From Candidatus Desantisbacteria bacterium CG1_02_49_89 (GTDB taxonomy: Bacteria; Desantisbacteria; UBA1551): a DNA stretch of 64,000 nucleotides. Numbering within the stretch: position 1 is the stretch's first letter; every line of letters starts with the position of its first letter. Location: assembly GCA_001871075.1 (NCBI GenBank), contig MNUP01000033.1, positions 437-64,436 of the forward strand, written 5' to 3'. A program made the position numbers and the translations under genes. A model generated the notes under the pieces. The model did not search any database. It was given only the letters and a program-made list of their open reading frames with translations, and had not been told where the DNA came from. Of this stretch, positions 1-8,831 are shown piece after piece.

Positions 1-503
1 TCACCGCCAGGATTATATTTAATAGTGAGATAGTCCTCGCCTGCCTCCCAGGAACATCCCGTTACATAGACGTTCCCTGTGTCGTCTACCGCAATATTCC
101 ATGCCTGGTCATCGCTATTGTTGTCATATCTTCTCTGCCAGACTGTATTGCCGTTTGAATCGTATTTAATTGTAAGGTAGTCATCGTCTATACCGTTTGA
201 GGAATATCCGGTTACGTAAATATTGCCTGAGTCATCAATGGCTATGCCGCCGTAGCCGAAATCGTGTTGTCCGCTGTCATACGCCTTCTGCCAAACTTCT
301 TCTGCATTGCTATATTCTCCCGGGCTTGGCGTTGTTTCCCCGCTCGAAGCTTTCGGTATCACGCCCGCCTCCTGCCCTCCTGTTATTACCTGCTCAGCCC
401 CGTCGGCGCTGCCGAAGCCGACGAAGAATGCTTCGCAGGTTAAAGGTTGAAGGTTAAAGGTTAAAAGGGTTAGAGCAATGACTGCTATTATCAGCTTTTT
501 CAT
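1..503 (-). CDS. Secreted SBBP/beta-propeller-repeat protein, N-terminal part only; the ORF runs off the left edge of the window
   Basis: The minus-strand ATG is at 503-501, giving MKKLIIAVIALTLL..., a signal peptide. Repeated '...YVTGYS..DYLTIKYDSNGN..W' units are typical of SBBP beta-propeller repeats. It is absent from the ORF track only because no stop codon falls inside the window. Confidence 0.55.
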   Translation of the reverse strand, partial: MKKLIIAVIALTLLTFNLQPLTCEAFFVGFGSADGAEQVITGGQEAGVIPKASSGETTPSPGEYSNAEEVWQKAYDSGQHDFGYGGIAIDDSGNIYVTGYSSNGIDDDYLTIKYDSNGNTVWQRRYDNNSDDQAWNIAVDDTGNVYVTGCSWEAGEDYLTIKYNPGG

Positions 504-518
504 CAAATCTCCGTCCAG

Positions 519-649
519 CGTGTCATTGCGAACCGAAGCCGCGAGCTGAAACCACGAGCAAAGCGTGGTGGGCAGCGTGGCGGGCGGTGAAGCAATCTAA
601 TGTTGCTTTATAGATTGCCGCGTCGCCAAAAGGCTCCTCGCAATGACAG
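519..649. repeat. MITE-like structured element E1, with terminal inverted repeats GTGTCATTGCGA / TCGCAATGACA and internal GAAGCAATCT / AGATTGC
   Basis: Seen directly. The terminal and internal inverted repeats are shared with the elements at 1733-1852 and 8757-8831. It carries a 57-nt insert that appears reverse-complemented in E2. Confidence 0.5.
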
Positions 650-746
650 ATAAATCAAGAATTTGTGTTACAAACCACGAACAACCAGTCGAAGATCCCT
701 GTGTTTAGTCCCGAAGGGTTTGCAGGGATCGGGACTGCAGGGATAA

Positions 747-1718
747 CTACATTATGTCAACCACGACCTTAATGCATTCCCCCGGCTTATACGCGCACAT
801 CTTTATGCCTTCCGCGATCCCTTCAAGTTTTATATGGTGGGTTATCAGCGGCTTTATCTTCAGCCTGCCAAGGCTTACAAGCTTCTCGCCGAACGCCATA
901 AGCTCCCTTATCCTGTCAAGGTAAGGCATTTTGAAGCCTATGATATCAATGCCGTGATAAAGGCAGTAGTTCGAGTCGAACGTGATCCCCTCGTCAACGC
1001 ACCCGTACATTATCAGTTTGCCGCGGTCCTTTATTATTTCAAGTGGAAGGTTAAAAAGGTTCTTGCCTGTCGCGTGTATCACGTCATCCACCCGGCCGAA
1101 TTTTTCATTTATTACTTTGGCAACGTTTTCTTTGCCCGCGTCAACAACAGCGTCAGCTCCGAGTTCCATTGCTTTGTCCAGGCGAAGCTTGCACATATCA
1201 ACGCCTATTACTTTTGAAGCTCCGGATATCTTAGCTTCCTGGACAAGGAGCAGGCCAGCCGGGCCCAGGCCAAGGACCACAACGGTTTCTCCGAGTTCCA
1301 CAAGCGTGCCCCTGCACATCGTGGAGCCCAGCATTTCCATTATCGACCCTTCATCATAAGAAATATTGCTGCTGAGCCTGGCAATGGCGTAATACTGCGG
1401 GTAGATATCGTTGTATTCGGTAAAAGCTCCTTCTGCCTTGCACCAGAACGCGATCCTATCGCCGATATTAAAACCCCCTTCAGCGTGTTTCCCCGCGTGC
1501 ACTATCTCGCCTGAGCACTCGTGCCCGCCTATCATCGGGAATTTCAGTTCAGGATGCGCCTTTATTATATCCCTTTCCCCTTTAAGCACTGCGCTGTCAG
1601 AACCGTTGCAGATGGACGCTCTGTGTATCTTCAGGATCAGGTTCCTGTCATCCGGCTTCGGCTCAGGAACGTCTTTTACGACTATTTCCGAAGGACCTAA
1701 AAATATCGCCGCTTTCAT
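747..1718 (-). CDS. Zn-dependent medium-chain alcohol dehydrogenase (threonine/sorbitol dehydrogenase-like)
   Basis: GHECSGEIVHAG zinc-ligand motif. Rossmann GxGxxG (VVVLGLGPAGLL). 323 aa. Confidence 0.8.
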   Translation of the reverse strand: MKAAIFLGPSEIVVKDVPEPKPDDRNLILKIHRASICNGSDSAVLKGERDIIKAHPELKFPMIGGHECSGEIVHAGKHAEGGFNIGDRIAFWCKAEGAFTEYNDIYPQYYAIARLSSNISYDEGSIMEMLGSTMCRGTLVELGETVVVLGLGPAGLLLVQEAKISGASKVIGVDMCKLRLDKAMELGADAVVDAGKENVAKVINEKFGRVDDVIHATGKNLFNLPLEIIKDRGKLIMYGCVDEGITFDSNYCLYHGIDIIGFKMPYLDRIRELMAFGEKLVSLGRLKIKPLITHHIKLEGIAEGIKMCAYKPGECIKVVVDIM

Positions 1719-1732
1719 TTTGTCTCCGTATC

Positions 1733-1852
1733 GGTGTCATTGCGAGGGTGAAACCCGTGGCAATCCCATACGAGATTGCTTCACCGCCCGCCACGCTGCC
1801 CACCACGCTTTGCTCGTGGTTTCAGCTCGCGGCTTCGGTTCGCAATGACATC
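1733..1852. repeat. MITE-like element E2, an inverted copy of E1
   Basis: 1788-1850 is the exact reverse complement of 521-585. It has the same GTGTCATTGCGAG...CGCAATGACA termini. It flanks the dehydrogenase gene on the other side. Confidence 0.5.
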
Positions 1853-1873
1853 TACAAATCTATTTTACGAAAT

Positions 1874-3025
1874 TTAATAATTACGGTTTTTCTTTATGTT
1901 TTCCGAGTTCAGGGATATCAATCTTTTAAGTCTGGATTCCTTTTCTTCCTCGGATACCTTATCCTGCATGCCAAGCGCTTTCGTATTAGGGCGGTCAGAG
2001 TATTTGAACATAAAAGCGTTGTTGAAACGCGTTCCCTTTACTATTTCAAGGGTCTGCAGGAAATCTTCTTCGGTCTCACCCGGGAACCCCACTATTATAT
2101 CCGTGCTGAAAACCGCGCCTGGTATCCTGTCTTTTATCGTCTTGATCAGGTCTAAGTAATGCTTCCTTGTGTATCCCCTGTTCATCGCCTCAAGGATCCT
2201 GTCTGACCCTGACTGCAAAGGCAGGTGGAATTCTTTTTCCATTTTATCCGATGCCGCTATTGCCTCTATCAGTTCCAGCGTCATGTCTTTCGGGTGCGCT
2301 GTCATATAACTTATTTTTTCAATTCCCTTTATCTTCTCTATTTCTTTCAGCAGTTCAACAAAATCATTACTTTTTGACGCACGACGCACGACGCACGACG
2401 CACGACTGTCTTTATAGGAGCACACATTCTGCCCCAGCAGCATTATCTCTTTAAAACCACCTGCGGCCACCCTCTCTGCTTCCGCGATGATCTCATCTGC
2501 CGGCCTGCTCTGTTCTCTTCCGCGCAAATGCGGCACAACGCAGTAGGAGCAGAAGTTGTCGCACCCCCTTATGATAGGCACGTATGCCATTTCCATATTT
2601 TTCCTCTCCACCGGAGGGAGAGGATTAAGGTGAGGGGGATTAAATTTCCCCGTCTCAACGATCCTTGACTTATTCTCTATCGCCTTTTTTACGAAATCGC
2701 CGGCTATACCGATGTTTCCGGGGCCAATAACAACCTGGACCCAGGGAAACCTGTTTAAAATGCCTGTTTTCTCCTGCTCAGCAAGGCACCCGCACACGCC
2801 TACCAGCAGGCCCGGTTTCTTTTCCTTGAGCTTCTTTGTTTCGGAAAGTATCGTGTAGAACCGCTGGACCGCGTGCTCTCTCACAGAACAGGTATTGAAA
2901 ATTATAATATCTGCTTCATCCGCATCTTTTATCTGTCTGAATCCGTGTTCAACCAATTGCCCGGCAATGCATTGCGAATCGTATTCATTCATCTGGCATC
3001 CAAAGGTTTTTATGTAAAATTTCAT
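1874..3025 (-). CDS. MiaB/RimO-family radical-SAM methylthiotransferase
   Basis: N-terminal MTTase domain (IKTFGCQMNEYDS). Radical-SAM CxxxCxxC (CDNFCSYCVVP). At 383 aa it appears to lack a C-terminal TRAM domain. It contains an in-frame heptamer array (GACGCAC)x4. Confidence 0.75.
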   Translation of the reverse strand: MKFYIKTFGCQMNEYDSQCIAGQLVEHGFRQIKDADEADIIIFNTCSVREHAVQRFYTILSETKKLKEKKPGLLVGVCGCLAEQEKTGILNRFPWVQVVIGPGNIGIAGDFVKKAIENKSRIVETGKFNPPHLNPLPPVERKNMEMAYVPIIRGCDNFCSYCVVPHLRGREQSRPADEIIAEAERVAAGGFKEIMLLGQNVCSYKDSRASCVVRRASKSNDFVELLKEIEKIKGIEKISYMTAHPKDMTLELIEAIAASDKMEKEFHLPLQSGSDRILEAMNRGYTRKHYLDLIKTIKDRIPGAVFSTDIIVGFPGETEEDFLQTLEIVKGTRFNNAFMFKYSDRPNTKALGMQDKVSEEEKESRLKRLISLNSENIKKNRNY

Positions 3026-3315
3026 TTTAAAAACCTCTGGATGATTTTACCGCAGGTTCCTATCAATTTAATTTTTCTTTTCTTTGACATAGTTTTTATT
3101 TTTCTCTCTGTCTTCATCGCATGCCTGCGGAATACGTATACCTTAGCATATACCAGCTTCACGGGCCCCCTGCCTTTTACATATTTAGCCCCTTTGCCCG
3201 TGTTGTGCAGGGCGATCCGTTTTTTCAGGTTATTGGTATAACCCGTATAGAATGTCCCGTCTTTGCATTTAAGGATATATACGAAAAACCTTTTTATGCT
3301 TTTCGCGCGTTTCAT
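3022..3315 (-). CDS. GIY-YIG nuclease-domain protein (UPF0213/YhbQ-like)
   Basis: FFVYILKCKDGTFYTGYTNNLKKRIALHN is the classic GIY-YIG signature. 97 aa. It overlaps the upstream gene by 4 nt. Confidence 0.7.
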   Translation of the reverse strand: MKRAKSIKRFFVYILKCKDGTFYTGYTNNLKKRIALHNTGKGAKYVKGRGPVKLVYAKVYVFRRHAMKTERKIKTMSKKRKIKLIGTCGKIIQRFLK

Positions 3316-4235
3316 TGGGCTGTTTCGGATGCGGTTGCGCGCGTGAAGATCGTTTCCTTAAAAACCTCTTTTATTGGCTTGCCTGTCCAGGTATCAGGAA
3401 TAACCAGGCCAAGCGCGTAGATCGCTGCGCCTGAAACGTCGCAGATAGAGACCGGAGCCTGGATCTCGTAATCGGATTTTACGGATGCCCCTGAGCAGAT
3501 AAAGGGAACACACATATCGCGCGGGTCTGTTGTCCCGTGCCCTTTCCCGTGCCCTCCGTGGTCAGCGCTTATTATAATAAAAGCCTGGTCCAGGATGCCC
3601 GCGGAACGGAGCCCGTCTAATAAAACACCTATAGCTTTGTCGCAATCCTCTACAGATTTAACCTGGTTAGCTGAACCCCAGCCCCAGCTATGCCCTGCTG
3701 AATCAGGATCAGGCAGGTGCACAAAACATAAATTAGGTTTTTCCTCAATAATATACTCGGCAGCCGCCCTGGCTATTACCCCGGCATTGCTGTTTACCCA
3801 CCTGAACTTATCCACTGTTCCCGGCTTGGCTATATGCAGAAGTTTTTGTTTGCCGGTAAACATCGCGGTTTTCAGGCCGGCTGCTTTTGCCAGCTCGAAT
3901 ACCGTTGTCACCTGAACGTATCCTTTTTCCGGTTTGTAATCGTTCCATGTTATTTTATGCACGCTTGCCTTAACGCCTGTCAGCATTGAGGTATGGGCAG
4001 GCAGCGTCACGCTGGGCACGATACTTTGCGCCCAGAAGGTATAAGCGCCTCCGGAAGACAAAGCGCGGATATTCCTGGACTCCGCCCTGCAAAAAACTAT
4101 GTCAGAACGGGCGCCGTCAATGCTTATTATAAGCACGTAGTTGAACGGTGTTAACGCAACGGAAACCTGCGCTGCCGTGAAAACCAGCACAAAAACAAAT
4201 AATCCGGCTAAAACTCTTTTGATCCGTTGCTTCAT
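3312..4235 (-). CDS. Secreted alkaline-phosphatase-superfamily nucleotide pyrophosphatase/phosphodiesterase
   Basis: Signal peptide. ISIDGARSD metal-site motif. HLPDPDSAGHSWG. SADHGGHGKGHGTTD. Confidence 0.7.
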   Translation of the reverse strand: MKQRIKRVLAGLFVFVLVFTAAQVSVALTPFNYVLIISIDGARSDIVFCRAESRNIRALSSGGAYTFWAQSIVPSVTLPAHTSMLTGVKASVHKITWNDYKPEKGYVQVTTVFELAKAAGLKTAMFTGKQKLLHIAKPGTVDKFRWVNSNAGVIARAAAEYIIEEKPNLCFVHLPDPDSAGHSWGWGSANQVKSVEDCDKAIGVLLDGLRSAGILDQAFIIISADHGGHGKGHGTTDPRDMCVPFICSGASVKSDYEIQAPVSICDVSGAAIYALGLVIPDTWTGKPIKEVFKETIFTRATASETAQ

Positions 4236-4265
4236 TTTTATTTTTTCCTTTCTTCTTCAAGTTTC

Positions 4266-4490
4266 TTACAGGGAAGGCAGGGGCATTTCCCGTATTTCAG
4301 CGTTGTCTTGCAGACCCAGGGGTAGTCCTTTCCCCTCACTCACTATTTTTTCGCAGAATTTGATCTCTTCCCCAGTTAAAGGTTTCGCGTTCTGAGCGAA
4401 CAGGTTCCTGATCAGCGTTTTCTCGATGAACGGCCAGGCAATGGCAAAACCCGCCGCGATACAAAGGATAACAATAAGGAAAATTTTCAT
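4266..4490 (-). CDS. Small hypothetical membrane protein
   Basis: 74-aa ORF with one N-terminal TM helix (MKIFLIVILCIAAGFAIAWPF). It lies in a 335-nt intergenic gap. There is no homology support. Confidence 0.25.
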   Translation of the reverse strand: MKIFLIVILCIAAGFAIAWPFIEKTLIRNLFAQNAKPLTGEEIKFCEKIVSEGKGLPLGLQDNAEIREMPLPSL

Positions 4491-4571
4491 ACAGCCTTCC
4501 CCCTATGGGGTAATGAACGGCGAGTTCTTCCCGAAGCAAAGTAGATCGCAGATGACATATAAAAAAGAAAC

Positions 4572-6080
4572 TTAAATAACGAACAGGTTGGCGGAAGAGA
4601 AGTTGGCGTCCGTGGTAAGGTTTACTCCCAGTCTTTTCAGGCCGGCTTCATCGCCGGGAGTGGGTATATGGGTCATATGGACTTCGCAGCCACGGAGTTT
4701 CTCCAGTTCCTTCAGCGCGATCTCGGCAGTGTGGTTGGTGGCAGCGCTTATCGAAAGGGCCGTAAGCGCTTCATCAAGGCTAAGGCTCTCGGATTCAGCT
4801 CCGAGTATGCCTTCTTTCATTTTCGCTATGCAGCTGAGCAGGTTCGGGGAAAGAAGAAGTATTCCGTCAGGTATGTTCGAAAGCGCTTTTATAGCGTTTA
4901 TAACAAGGCTTGACGCCGCGTGCATCAAGGGCGAGTTCTTACCCGTGATCATACGGCCGTCAGGCAGCTGTATTGCCGCCCCGCAGAACACGCCTTTGTT
5001 TCCCTTGCCTTTTTTCTCAGCGTCATCCGCGGCTTTGCGCGCGGGCAGGACAACGCCGCGGCCCTCCGGCTTTAACCCGAGTTCCTCCATGATCTTTTTC
5101 GCCTTCTCCACTGTTTTTTCGTTCTCTATGCCCTGGAAATATTCGCAGTTGTAACGCAGGAACCTGCGTATGATCTCCTGTTTCGCTGCTTCCTGCACGA
5201 TTTCGTCGTCTATTATCCCGAAACCGACCCTGTTCACTCCCATATCGGTCGGGGACTTGTACGCGGACTCCCCGAGGATCTTCTGCAGTATTTTCGCGAG
5301 TATCGGGAAACTCTCAACATCCCTGTTGTAATTAACGGAAACCTTGTTATAGGCGCTGAGGTGGAATGGGTCAACCAGGTTGAAGTCAAGTATATCCGCG
5401 GTTGCAGCTTCATACGCGATATTGACCGGGTGCTTCAGAGGCAGGTTCCAGATCGGGAAGGTCTCGAATTTCGCGTATCCCGAATGCATGCCTTTCTTGT
5501 GATCGTGGTACATCTGCGAAAAACAGGTTGCCAGCTTGCCGCTGCCCGGGCCGGGCGCCGTGATTATCACTATAGGTTTTTTGGTGGGTATGTATTCGTT
5601 TTTACCCAGGCCTTCGTCGCTGACAATAGCGTCCGTGTCAACGGGATAACCTTTTATGACCCCGTGGGTATATACCTTTATTCCCCTGCGCTCCAGCTTG
5701 TTTTTGAACTTCACAGAAAGAGGCTGGGAATCGAACCTGGTGATAAGCACAGCGGTTACGTCCAGGTTCCATTTGCGAAGGTCGTCCATAAGCTTCAGGG
5801 TCGCTATGTCATACGTAATGCCGAAATCACCCCTTATCCTCCCCTTCTCTATGTCACCCGCAAAAATGCACAGGATTATCTCAACCTTTTCCTTAAGTTC
5901 CTGCAGGAGCTTTATCTTAACGTTGGGGTCGTATCCGGGCAGGACCCTTGCGGCGTGATAATCGTAGCACAGCTTTCCGCCGAATTCAAGGTAAAGCTTG
6001 TTGTTGAACTTCCTGACCCGGTCAAGTATCTCCGCCGTTTGCTCTTTCAGGTATTTTTCGTTGTCAAACCCGGTCTTCAT
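4572..6080 (-). CDS. UPF0371/DUF1846 family protein
   Basis: MKTGFDNEKYLKEQ...LCYDYHAARVLPGYDP matches the characteristic UPF0371 N-terminus. It lies 12 nt downstream of thrS. Confidence 0.75.
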   Translation of the reverse strand: MKTGFDNEKYLKEQTAEILDRVRKFNNKLYLEFGGKLCYDYHAARVLPGYDPNVKIKLLQELKEKVEIILCIFAGDIEKGRIRGDFGITYDIATLKLMDDLRKWNLDVTAVLITRFDSQPLSVKFKNKLERRGIKVYTHGVIKGYPVDTDAIVSDEGLGKNEYIPTKKPIVIITAPGPGSGKLATCFSQMYHDHKKGMHSGYAKFETFPIWNLPLKHPVNIAYEAATADILDFNLVDPFHLSAYNKVSVNYNRDVESFPILAKILQKILGESAYKSPTDMGVNRVGFGIIDDEIVQEAAKQEIIRRFLRYNCEYFQGIENEKTVEKAKKIMEELGLKPEGRGVVLPARKAADDAEKKGKGNKGVFCGAAIQLPDGRMITGKNSPLMHAASSLVINAIKALSNIPDGILLLSPNLLSCIAKMKEGILGAESESLSLDEALTALSISAATNHTAEIALKELEKLRGCEVHMTHIPTPGDEAGLKRLGVNLTTDANFSSANLFVI

Positions 6081-6092
6081 TGACCTTTACTC

Positions 6093-7820
6093 CTATTCTT
6101 TGAGTTCTCCCTCGAACTTACCGACAAACTCCTCTATTTTTATAGCGCCCGCGTTGCCGCCTTTCTGGGAACGGACCGAAACAGTGTTTTCAGAGACTTC
6201 CTTGTCCCCTATTACCAGCATATACGGGACCTTTTCCATCTGCGCGAGCCGTATTTTCGCCTGCAGGGTCTGGTTGTCCTCATCGATAGCAACTCTTGCG
6301 CCCTTTTCTGCCAGAGTTTCCTTTACTTTTCTTGAGTATTCGTTATGCCTGTCAGCTATGGGTATCAGTTTTACCTGGACAGGGGCAAGCCAGAGCGGGA
6401 AAGCCCCGTTGTAGAATTCGATCAGGATCGCCATGAACCGCTCAAAAGAACCCAGTATGGCGCGGTGTATCATTATCGGCTCGTGCTCTTTGCTGTCCTC
6501 GCCCACATAGGAAAGCTTGAAAGCCGCGGGAAGGTTGAAATCCACCTGTATCGTGGTGCACTGCCATTCCCTGTTAAGCGCGTCCTTGATCTTAATGTCT
6601 ATTTTAGGCCCGTAGAAAACGCCTTCGCCCGGGTCGATCTGGTATTTTGTCTCGTTTTTTTCAAGCGCTGTCTTCAAAGCGGAAGTGGCAACCTCCCAGT
6701 TCTCAAGTGTCCCCACGTATTTCTCAGGCCTGGTGCTGACATACATCACGTAATCCTTGAAACCGAACTTTCCCAGGAAAAACGAAGTGAGCTTGAGCAC
6801 GCCTGATACTTCGTCCTCTATCTGGTCTTTCCTGCAGAAGATATGCGCGTCGTCCTGCGTGAAGCCGCGCACCCTGAGCAGGCCGTGCAGGACGCCCGGT
6901 TTTTCGTAGCGGTACACCGTACCCATTTCAGCCCAGCGTAAAGGCAGATCCCTGTAGCTGCGGGTCTGTGTCTTGTACACCATAATATGGCCGGGGCAGT
7001 TCATGGGCTTGAGCATGTAACTTTCATTCTCGAACTCCATCGGCGGGTACATGTTTTCCTTATAGAAATTAAGGTGGCCGCTTGTTTTCCACAAACCGGT
7101 CCTTGCTATGTGCGGTGAGTAGATCAGATCGTAGCCGTTCTTTAAATGCGTTTCAACCCAGAAATTCTCTATTATCCTGCGTATCAGCGCGCCCTTAGGA
7201 TGCCAGTAGATCAGGCCGGGCCCAGCTTCCTCCTGATGTATGCTGAAAAGGTCAAGTTCCTTACCGAGCTTCCTGTGGTCCCTTTTTTTGATCTCTTCCA
7301 GCCTCTGGATGTATTCGTCCAGTTCCTTCTGGGAGTAGAACGCGGTCCCGTATATGCGCTGCAGCATCGGGTTCTTCTCGCTTCCCCTCCAGTACGCTCC
7401 TGCAACGCTGAGCAGTTTGAACGCCTTGATCTCGCCCGTTGACGGAACATGGGGTCCCCTGCACATATCCGAAAAATCCCCGCATTTATAAAATGTCACC
7501 TTCTGGCCGGGTATTTCGGCCAGCAGGTCAAGCTTGTACGCCGCGCCGGCGTCTTTAAGGTTTTTTTCCGCTTCCTTGCGGTCAACCTCGATCTTCTCAA
7601 AAATGCTGTCCGCGTTGATGATCTCGCGCATTTTTTCTTCTATTTTTACCAGGTCTTCTGTCGCAAAAGGGTCCTGCCGGTCAAAATCGTAGTAGAAACC
7701 GTCTTCTATGGAAGGGCCTATCCCGAATTTCACGCCAGGGAAAAGCTCTTTTACCGCGTATGCCAGTATGTGGCTCGCGCTGTGCCTGTAAACGTCAAGA
7801 GGATATCTTTCCTTGCTCAT
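6093..7820 (-). CDS. thrS: Threonyl-tRNA synthetase
   Basis: Class II aaRS core. HRKLGKELDLF motif. N2/editing domain (HSASHILAYAV). C-terminal anticodon-binding domain. At 575 aa it begins at the N2 domain, with no TGS domain. Confidence 0.9.
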   Translation of the reverse strand: MSKERYPLDVYRHSASHILAYAVKELFPGVKFGIGPSIEDGFYYDFDRQDPFATEDLVKIEEKMREIINADSIFEKIEVDRKEAEKNLKDAGAAYKLDLLAEIPGQKVTFYKCGDFSDMCRGPHVPSTGEIKAFKLLSVAGAYWRGSEKNPMLQRIYGTAFYSQKELDEYIQRLEEIKKRDHRKLGKELDLFSIHQEEAGPGLIYWHPKGALIRRIIENFWVETHLKNGYDLIYSPHIARTGLWKTSGHLNFYKENMYPPMEFENESYMLKPMNCPGHIMVYKTQTRSYRDLPLRWAEMGTVYRYEKPGVLHGLLRVRGFTQDDAHIFCRKDQIEDEVSGVLKLTSFFLGKFGFKDYVMYVSTRPEKYVGTLENWEVATSALKTALEKNETKYQIDPGEGVFYGPKIDIKIKDALNREWQCTTIQVDFNLPAAFKLSYVGEDSKEHEPIMIHRAILGSFERFMAILIEFYNGAFPLWLAPVQVKLIPIADRHNEYSRKVKETLAEKGARVAIDEDNQTLQAKIRLAQMEKVPYMLVIGDKEVSENTVSVRSQKGGNAGAIKIEEFVGKFEGELKE

Positions 7821-8289: not shown

Positions 8290-8395
8290 CTGAAAGTTAA
8301 AAACTAAAATAGCCTGATAGAAAATAGAAAATTGAGAATAGACCGTCCCGATGTAACATCGGGACTCCACCACTTTTCCCTTGTTGGGAAAAGTG

Positions 8396-8470
8396 GTGCC
8401 AAGGGGCGGAATTGAACCGCCGACGCACGGATTTTCAGTCCGTCGCTCTACCAGACTGAGCTACCTTGGC
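8396..8470 (-). tRNA. tRNA-Phe(GAA), with CCA encoded
   Basis: GCCAAGGTAGCTCAGTCTGGTAGAGCGACGGACTGAAAATCCGTGCGTCGGCGGTTCAATTCCGCCCCTTGGCACCA. Confidence 0.85.
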
Positions 8471-8756
8471 ACATCCTGGTTAATGATAAAGAAAAGATTG
8501 ATGAACCTTTCAGTCCGTCGCTCTTCCTGGGTGATCTGCATAAAAGAATGCGCGTCGCTTTGCTCTTCCACCCGTCGAAGACATAAGTGATGTCTTCGAC
8601 CCAGACTGAGCTACCTTGGCACGTTAAATACAGTGATGAGTGAAAAGTGTCGCCCCTTCGGCGACCCGCCGTTGAGGCGGGAAAAGTCAAAAGATCATAC
8701 AACAGACTGCCTGTCCGTAATTACTGATATTCGCTTAATTGATTGACGCTTTTTAT

Positions 8757-8831
8757 TGTCATTGCGAGCCCGAAGGGCGCGGCAATCTCGTCGTTAAAAG
8801 CGAGATTGCTTCGCTGTCGCTCGCAAAGACA
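8757..8831. repeat. MITE-like element E3, a short member of the GTCATTGCGAG family
   Basis: Termini GTCATTGCGAG / CTCGCAAAGAC. Internal GCAATCTCG...CGAGATTGC. Confidence 0.45.

Follow-up and report, generated by a model that had tools for sequence, protein, structure and literature searches.

Why should a single dehydrogenase gene be bracketed by inverted copies of one small palindromic sequence? The question arises from a 64,000-nt stretch of contig MNUP01000033.1 of Candidatus Desantisbacteria bacterium CG1_02_49_89 (hereafter the window), in which two intergenic elements, E1 and E2, flank a dehydrogenase gene (ADH) and a third, E3, lies further along. The original prediction took these elements for a non-autonomous family without open reading frames (ORFs), resembling miniature inverted-repeat transposable elements (MITEs), and proposed that the pair could mobilise or invert the gene or else mark a past insertion. 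The reading favoured here, with a probability of roughly 0.78, is that E1, E2 and E3 are dimers of oriented, tagged hairpin repeats, of the kind represented by the CGTC/TGTC-tagged repetitive extragenic palindromes (REPs) and the repeats related to Ssn nucleases. The elements mark a gene insertion, and there is no sign of a transposon carrying ADH.

All three elements were located where they had been predicted, with the common termini and inner hairpin attributed to them, and the identity of the 747-1718 gene was confirmed by matches to ADH_N (5e-09) and ADH_zinc_N (1.4e-21). The features on which the argument rests are as follows.

521..648, no strand assigned: E1, a tail-to-tail dimer of two TGTC-tagged hairpin units with the tags outward; it lies 98 nt past the ADH stop codon and 17 nt ahead of the start codon of an SBBP-repeat gene (ATG at 503, minus strand).
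521..598, plus strand: long unit A, copy 1, with a TGTC tag, a closing stem ATTGC (525-529)/GCAAT (592-596), an extended inner hairpin of about 62 nt, and then a 3' C.
613..648, minus strand: unit B, the partner of A in E1 (TGTCATTGCGAGGAGCCTTTTGGCGACGCGGCAATC).
747..1718, minus strand: ADH, a medium-chain Zn-dependent dehydrogenase of 323 aa.
1735..1850, no strand assigned: E2, a tail-to-tail dimer of hairpin units, 23 nt past the stop codon of a MiaB-like gene and 16 nt ahead of the ADH start codon; the ADH ribosome-binding site occupies this 16-nt gap.
1735..1765, plus strand: unit C, the partner of A in E2 (TGTCATTGCGAGGGTGAAACCCGTGGCAATC).
1773..1850, minus strand: long unit A, copy 2, the exact reverse complement of 521-598.
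8757..8831, no strand assigned: E3, a short dimer between a histidine-kinase gene and tRNA-Phe.
8757-8787, plus strand: the first unit of E3.
8804-8831, minus strand: the second unit of E3, with a degenerate tag-proximal stem (TGTCTTTGCGAG).

The inverted repeat first recognised at 521-585 and 1788-1850 is real and sits inside a longer perfect block of 78 nt, whose arms (521-598 and 1773-1850) are 100% complementary and 1174 nt apart. Allowing one mismatch, the 11-mer TGTCATTGCGA has six matches in the window against a chance expectation of 0.98, and these six are both ends of the three elements (521/648, 1735/1850 and 8757/8831); the last match, at the 8831 side of E3, carries one mismatch and reads TGTCTTTGCGA. 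Central GCAATC..GATTGC hairpins were found at 592-618 in E1, 1760-1779 in E2 and 8782-8809 in E3. On both strands, the three elements fold much better than shuffled sequences (z -4.6 to -6.6). Every unit in the window also folds singly, with its TGTC tag unpaired and ATTGC/GCAAT closing a stem around a variable inner hairpin; long unit A alone, for example, folds at -33.8 kcal/mol with the tag left free. Altogether the window holds five clean units and one degenerate unit, compared with about 0.4 in shuffled sequence. Identity between E1 and E2 is confined to one half of each element, while the loops and the other halves differ. Since the shared 78 nt correspond to exactly one unit with a different partner on each side, E1 and E2 are not copies of one element; they are two heterodimers with one common unit, probably duplicated or converted recently. 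The core of that long unit had no matches in viral contigs and none elsewhere among the fetched loci. A scan against Rfam at the gathering threshold recovered tRNAs only and no family for the elements, and a literature search with the repeat sequence strings returned primers only.

Beyond the window, the pattern TGTCATTGCGAG-N(8-38)-GCAATC-N(4-30)-GATTGC was searched in IMG/VR viral contigs and in GTDB species genomes, where it matched 87 and at least 120 stretches, respectively. The hosts include Alpha-, Gamma- and Deltaproteobacteria, Campylobacterota, Nitrospirota, Planctomycetota, Chloroflexota, Patescibacteria, Cyanobacteria, Bacteroidota, Bacillota, Spirochaetota, Elusimicrobiota and Omnitrophota, among others; the ATTGC variant is present across most bacterial phyla and on phage contigs. 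About 670 termini define the unit: flanks are random up to a pyrimidine (Y) and are followed by an invariant GTCATTGCGAG, so that the boundary Y|GTCATTGCGAG is sharp, and the position ahead of GTC is occupied by T in 73% and by C in 21% of copies. Two flank classes, GTC..C and G..GAC, proved to be the two strands of one frame, YGTC-ATTGC-[variable hairpin]-GCAAT-C. Units are mostly 20-40 nt long, reaching about 100 nt or more, with an interior of 10-62 nt that forms its own hairpin. About half of them are dimeric (352 units in dimers and 318 singletons), arranged tail-to-tail with the tags outward, the spacer between the two units measuring 6-30 nt in most cases. Identical units are combined in only 4 of 181 dimers, the rest being heterodimers.

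Within a unit the two stem strands covary: ATTGC occurs with GCAAT in 587 of 621 cases, ATTCT with AGAAT in 24 of 40, and ATTCC with GGAAT in 22 of 33. Mixed dimers carry the same message. At locus L057, an ATTGC unit is joined to an ATTAC/GTAAT unit, the halves being internally complementary and the ends mismatched; at locus L171, an ATTCT unit is joined to TGTCATTCCCGCGAAGGCGGGAATC, the core of which fits the consensus of the Neisseria NTS repeat except for T in place of C at the first tag base. These compensatory changes within units, together with the mixed dimers, identify the half-element as the real unit. The repeat unit is therefore a tagged hairpin rather than a whole element, and units, not dimers, are copied.

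This structure bears directly on the idea of a classical MITE, i.e., a deletion derivative of a DDE-type insertion sequence (IS) moved in trans through its 12-nt terminal inverted repeats. The termini TGTCATTGCGAG / CTCGCAATGACA are indeed 12-nt perfect inverted repeats, and the elements are ORF-less, intergenic and 75-130 nt long. However, the halves behave independently, with their own compensatory changes and mixed partners, and singleton units are as common as dimeric ones. Target-site duplications of 2-9 nt were absent at 223 full copies at three boundary offsets, their frequencies equalling those of shuffled controls, and no recurrent transposase appeared when the 1030 ORFs lying no more than 400 nt from copies at 200 loci were clustered all against all. 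The clusters consisted only of phage structural proteins and chance families, the viral neighbours being portal and capsid genes. No parent autonomous element with the same termini and a transposase emerged from this clustering; nor did a Y1-like transposase cluster, although this was a general clustering of neighbours and not a search aimed at Y1/HUH motifs. The classical MITE is thus already largely refuted and very improbable. Of the predicted MITE-like family, what stands is a genuine, ORF-less family of palindromic repeats; its transposon sense does not.

The phage copies offer some observations of their own. About 22 related IMG/VR phage contigs (L007, L009, L010, L012, L013, L023, L028 and L033, among others) share clusters of portal, capsid and small-terminase-like genes and carry dimers in the intergenic spacers between their structural genes. 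On one of them (L033, 3026-3138), a bare tag with its spacer, 23 nt in all, is repeated in tandem in five copies. Such carriage is curious, given that motifs of this kind are targets of single-strand DNA nucleases.

If the elements are not transposon ends, how did ADH come to lie between them? Throughout the first 10 kb, every gene is encoded on the minus strand; those around the elements are listed here.

Start codon at 503, minus strand: SBBP-repeat gene, outside the E1/E2 bracket.
1874-3025, minus strand: MiaB-like radical-SAM gene, without a TRAM domain.
3022-3315, minus strand: GIY-YIG gene of the UPF0213 type, single-domain, 97 aa.
Then, in order, minus strand: a phosphodiesterase gene, a DUF1846 gene, the threonyl-tRNA synthetase gene (ThrRS), tRNA-Val, tRNA-Phe, E3 and the histidine-kinase gene.

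In relatives whose MiaB is 56-60% identical, the order is ThrRS, MiaB, (Flp), TadE, Tad, TadE, RcpC and secretin. MiaB and the pilus genes are only 70-116 nt apart in these genomes, with neither ADH nor the SBBP gene in between, and about 33 kb of the relatives' contigs contained no hairpin units. In the genome of the window, MiaB and Flp are separated by E2-ADH-E1 and the SBBP gene. Because MiaB is directly followed by Flp/Tad in the relatives, this segment is an insertion, specific to the lineage, by which ADH came to interrupt the conserved block of MiaB and Tad pilus genes; the predicted past insertion is borne out by synteny. On the other side of MiaB, at 3022-7820, ThrRS and MiaB, directly adjacent in related genomes, are set apart by four extra genes (DUF1846, a 74-aa ORF, the phosphodiesterase and the UPF0213 GIY-YIG gene). 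With extra genes on both sides of MiaB, the region is a hot spot of insertions.

A composite transposon or invertible cassette, in which the E1/E2 pair moves or flips ADH as one unit, would account for a perfect 78-nt inverted repeat around one gene and for the absence of ADH from this position in relatives. However, the insertion also takes in the SBBP gene, which lies outside the bracket. The nearest ADH homologues (71-74% identity) occur in two unrelated contexts without elements, and no E-ADH-E block travelling as a unit was seen in the homologue contexts examined. As for inversion, ten population contigs from different samples are collinear with window positions 1-3400 at 99.7% identity or more; in all ten, both 78-nt arms are intact and ADH keeps one orientation, so that no inversion of the segment was found among them. 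Moreover, neither the fetched data nor viral contigs contained a further copy of the long unit that forms the arms. Mobilisation or inversion by the pair, as originally proposed, is accordingly very improbable, and the composite-transposon reading is without support. The repeat family is an ordinary one that had been correctly spotted.

The same population contigs reveal variation within the inserted genes. A subpopulation carries an in-frame 132-nt deletion in ADH, which shortens the protein from 323 to 279 aa (L300:5126-5965, L301:2161-3000) and suggests that the inserted gene may be dispensable. The SBBP-repeat gene (window 1-503) is split into two ORFs of 256 and 164 aa in most population contigs and forms one 421-aa ORF in L300 (L088:11216-12481 versus L300:6209-7474), a difference that could reflect a frameshift polymorphism or a pseudogene.

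Two bodies of published work describe repeats resembling the units. Chenal et al. characterized Ssn proteins, single-domain GIY-YIG nucleases of about 94 aa (cd10448), which bind the NTS hairpin repeat (CGTCATTCCCGCGMAVGCGGGAATCYRG) only as single-stranded DNA and cut the tagged strand only, a few nt upstream (5') of the tag (Chenal et al., 2025; PMC11893778). The critical positions are the GTC triplet preceding the palindrome and the C that directly follows it. The ssn genes are flanked by related motifs (SRMs), the motifs cluster around genes, NTS-gene-NTS layouts occur, and DNA with such a layout is restricted in transformation (Chenal et al., 2025; PMC11893778). Earlier, Di Nocera et al. 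described CGTC-tagged REPs, in which the CGTC tag is often TGTC, stems start with AT, and dimers, often heterodimers, are formed without a transposase (Di Nocera et al., 2013; PMC3733652). These families, in which the stem measures 8-9 bp and the loop 4-5 nt, include Neisseria dRS3 and Rickettsia RPE-4/RPE-6, and occur in Alphaproteobacteria, Bacteroidetes, Spirochaetes and other groups (Di Nocera et al., 2013; PMC3733652).

The window elements share with SRM/NTS repeats an oriented hairpin in the frame YGTC-ATT..stem..loop..stem..AAT-C, with TGTCATTGCGAG..GCAATC in the elements corresponding to CGTCATTCCCGCGMAVGCGGGAATC in NTS, and this frame parallels the Neisseria arrangement CGTC-ATTCCCGCG...CGCGGGAAT-C. 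Both have a conserved GTC directly 5' and a conserved C directly 3' of the palindrome, and both occupy intergenic positions and cluster around genes. The L171 dimer goes further by joining an ATTCT-stem sister unit to an NTS-like unit. The differences are that the stem of the elements is ATTGC instead of ATTCCCGCG, that a variable 10-62-nt hairpin takes the place of the NTS loop, and that the host belongs to a candidate phylum, Desantisbacteria, not named in the main text of the study (PMC11893778). With CGTC-tagged REPs, the elements have in common an unpaired CGTC/TGTC tag at one end, a stem starting with AT, a short unpaired tail, a preponderance of dimers, often heterodimers, and the lack of a dedicated transposase; unlike those REPs, they have a much wider taxonomic range that includes phage contigs.

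Two other repeat classes invite comparison. REPs and REPINs served by RAYT (an IS200/IS605-like Y1 protein) are likewise non-autonomous hairpin units with an unpaired tetranucleotide tag; they form inverted doublets that fold into a long hairpin, leave no target-site duplications, and have a repeat-flanked partner gene. Their tag, however, is GTAG rather than YGTC, and their protein is an HUH/Y1 transposase rather than a GIY-YIG nuclease. Bacterial MITEs such as Correia, Nezha and RUP are also small, intergenic and multi-copy with terminal inverted repeats, whereas the elements described here are modular half-elements with neither target-site duplications nor a parent IS encoding a transposase.

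Several points weigh against placing the elements among the tagged REPs and Ssn-related repeats. The published SRM search sequence, HGTCWYN(0-2)YYVSBRHN(0-5)WNVSBRGN(0-2)RNCYNB, has no matches in the window; it misses the three units tested (one each from E1, E2 and E3), although it fits the NTS consensus. The conserved closing stem is only 5 bp and surrounds an inner hairpin of up to 62 nt, compared with the 8-9 bp stem and 4-5 nt loop of CGTC-tagged REPs. Neither the window nor the roughly 9 kb lying beyond its start yielded an Ssn-type gene. Finally, there are only three elements in 64 kb, so that the units of this genome may be relics and not part of an active system. On account of the pattern mismatch and of the 5-bp stem with its long interior, the elements are classed as a CGTC-REP/SRM variant and not as a textbook member.

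A tie to the Ssn system comes from genes found next to the repeats elsewhere. Only 3 of 200 loci retrieved by the DNA pattern encode a small GIY-YIG protein, each time from an ORF placed within split units or abutting them. Conversely, when GIY-YIG genes of the Flavobacteriia/Campylobacteraceae type were chosen by protein alone, units flanked or embedded the gene in five of five contexts (Cellulophaga, Winogradskyella, a wastewater lineage, Ancylomarina and Psychroserpens). In total, the ATTGC variant flanks a small GIY-YIG gene at eight of eight independent loci from Bacteroidota and Campylobacterota, and at three loci (L311, L211 and L068) the gene sits exactly in the loop of a dimer. A tblastn search of PLSDB with the L211 protein hit Neisseria gonorrhoeae chromosomes at 47-49% identity (E = 4e-21); complete chromosomes of this species (2.17 Mb) are filed there as plasmids. 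At the locus concerned (L323; NZ_CP119140.1:1880757-1884056), a 94-aa GIY-YIG protein is embedded among more than 15 NTS copies, which identifies it as SsnA. The L068 protein, itself flanked by ATTGC units, is 45% identical to N. gonorrhoeae SsnA over its full length (E = 1e-28). The variant thus flanks SsnA homologues, as judged from the two proteins compared directly (45-49%). The linkage is frequent, not universal, as was also reported for the published motifs (PMC11893778): the plasmid-borne Ssn homologues of Novosphingobium pNL2 and Sinorhizobium (S. meliloti) pSymB have no units within 1.5 kb. A search for further ssn-type genes in viral contigs recovered only the query itself.

In the Bacteroidota, ssn-type genes lie in or against type I restriction-modification operons in four of six isolate contexts (L165:1599-5019, L308:1-3288, L321:1-2691 and L322:1-2688), an association not mentioned in PMC11893778. 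The layouts are hsdM-dimer-hsdS-dimer-ssn in Lacinutrix, hsdS-ssn-hsdR in Cellulophaga, ssn-hsdR in Ancylomarina and hsdR-dimer-ssn-dimer in Psychroserpens; in the Lacinutrix hsdS, unit halves occur in frame at 2604-2635 and 3215-3246.

The window has a small GIY-YIG gene of its own, the UPF0213-type gene at 3022-3315, 1.2 kb away. It might be the cognate nuclease, the two forming a nuclease-plus-motif pair of a new clade: all three elements lie within 5.5 kb of it (about 0.005 under uniform placement), its 97-aa single-domain product belongs to the Ssn superfamily, and relatives without the elements also lack the gene. This is nevertheless improbable. The protein matches UPF0213 structures strongly (PDB 1zg2, E = 3.6e-21) and SsnA only weakly (27% identity), and 82 loci of its closest homologues showed no units, no SRM-pattern matches and no flanking inverted repeats. 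A repeat terminus within 200 nt was recorded at 1 of these 82 loci, compared with units in five of five contexts of the other type (Fisher p = 1.6e-7). The gene was accordingly rejected as the leading candidate for an autonomous partner.

The position of the elements among co-directional genes raises the further question of a role in RNA, as mRNA-stabilising 3' hairpins, attenuators or translational modulators of their neighbours. The flanking genes all share the minus strand; 16 nt lie between E2 and the ADH start and 17 nt between E1 and the SBBP start, each element being just 5' of a ribosome-binding site; and the transcribed strand folds at -56 kcal/mol. In addition, many CGTC-tagged REPs are probably transcribed (Di Nocera et al., 2013; PMC3733652). 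On the other hand, neither E1 nor E2 contains a T-run or terminator-like site, and no Rfam family matches. The tag, moreover, is unpaired and orients the unit, and its strict conservation, together with that of the stem sequence, across phyla points to recognition by a protein rather than to a generic RNA hairpin. An RNA-level role is therefore an unlikely explanation of the family, yet it does not exclude the DNA-level one, with which it is compatible.

With tagged hairpin repeats as the favoured reading, a route of spread can be proposed. Each unit comprises an unpaired 5' YGTC tag, a closing stem starting with ATT, a variable 10-62-nt hairpin and a conserved 3' C. Units would spread as hairpins on single-stranded DNA by a route like that of REPs and REPINs, possibly with the help of Ssn, and thus in a manner unlike the cut-and-paste movement of an element with terminal inverted repeats. 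The two identical long units around ADH probably arose by recent local duplication or gene conversion. With tags on the plus strand at 521 and 1735 and on the minus strand at 648 and 1850, either strand of the ADH segment would be cut on both sides if a cognate Ssn were present. The unit-gene-unit layout is probably of the same kind as the NTS clusters around variable Neisseria genes. A bolder version likens TGTC-unit dimers to REPINs: they would be the non-autonomous counterpart of an IS-like element that relies for its mobility on an Ssn-type GIY-YIG single-strand nuclease, a class of nuclease so far unrecognised among transposases, and facing pairs would serve as landing pads that capture foreign genes such as ADH. 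The three ssn genes found in dimer loops fit this picture, which is doubtful all the same.

At the level of the locus, the bracketing repeats around ADH are explained, and the finding is modest. Its wider interest lies in the fact that the published SRM pattern misses a whole variant, defined by an ATTGC stem with a variable inner hairpin and linked to SsnA homologues. The variant reaches very many phyla, including the candidate phyla radiation, Chloroflexota, Nitrospirota, Planctomycetota and Desantisbacteria, as well as phage contigs. The system of Ssn nucleases and hairpin repeats is thus probably larger than reported, and so, probably, is the set of enzyme-motif pairs that could be used as single-strand DNA tools.

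Two other genes near the elements deserve mention. For the MiaB-like gene, truncation by E2 with loss of the TRAM domain was considered and rejected, since P0035 and P0036, its nearest homologues, stop at the same position and likewise have no TRAM; the TRAM-less form is a lineage trait and not damage caused by E2. Within this gene, a 7-nt tandem repeat (CGCACGA, three copies, 2371-2400) gives rise to a low-complexity insert, SRASCVVRRAS, which is lacking in the homologues P0033 and P0036 and partial in P0035. Near E3, the 5' half of tRNA-Phe (8394-8470, minus strand) recurs as partial copies at 8508-8537 (83% over 30 nt) and 8601-8622 (100% over 22 nt). These copies sit upstream of the tRNA gene, between it and E3, and may be left over from a tRNA copy that has decayed or from an integration event.

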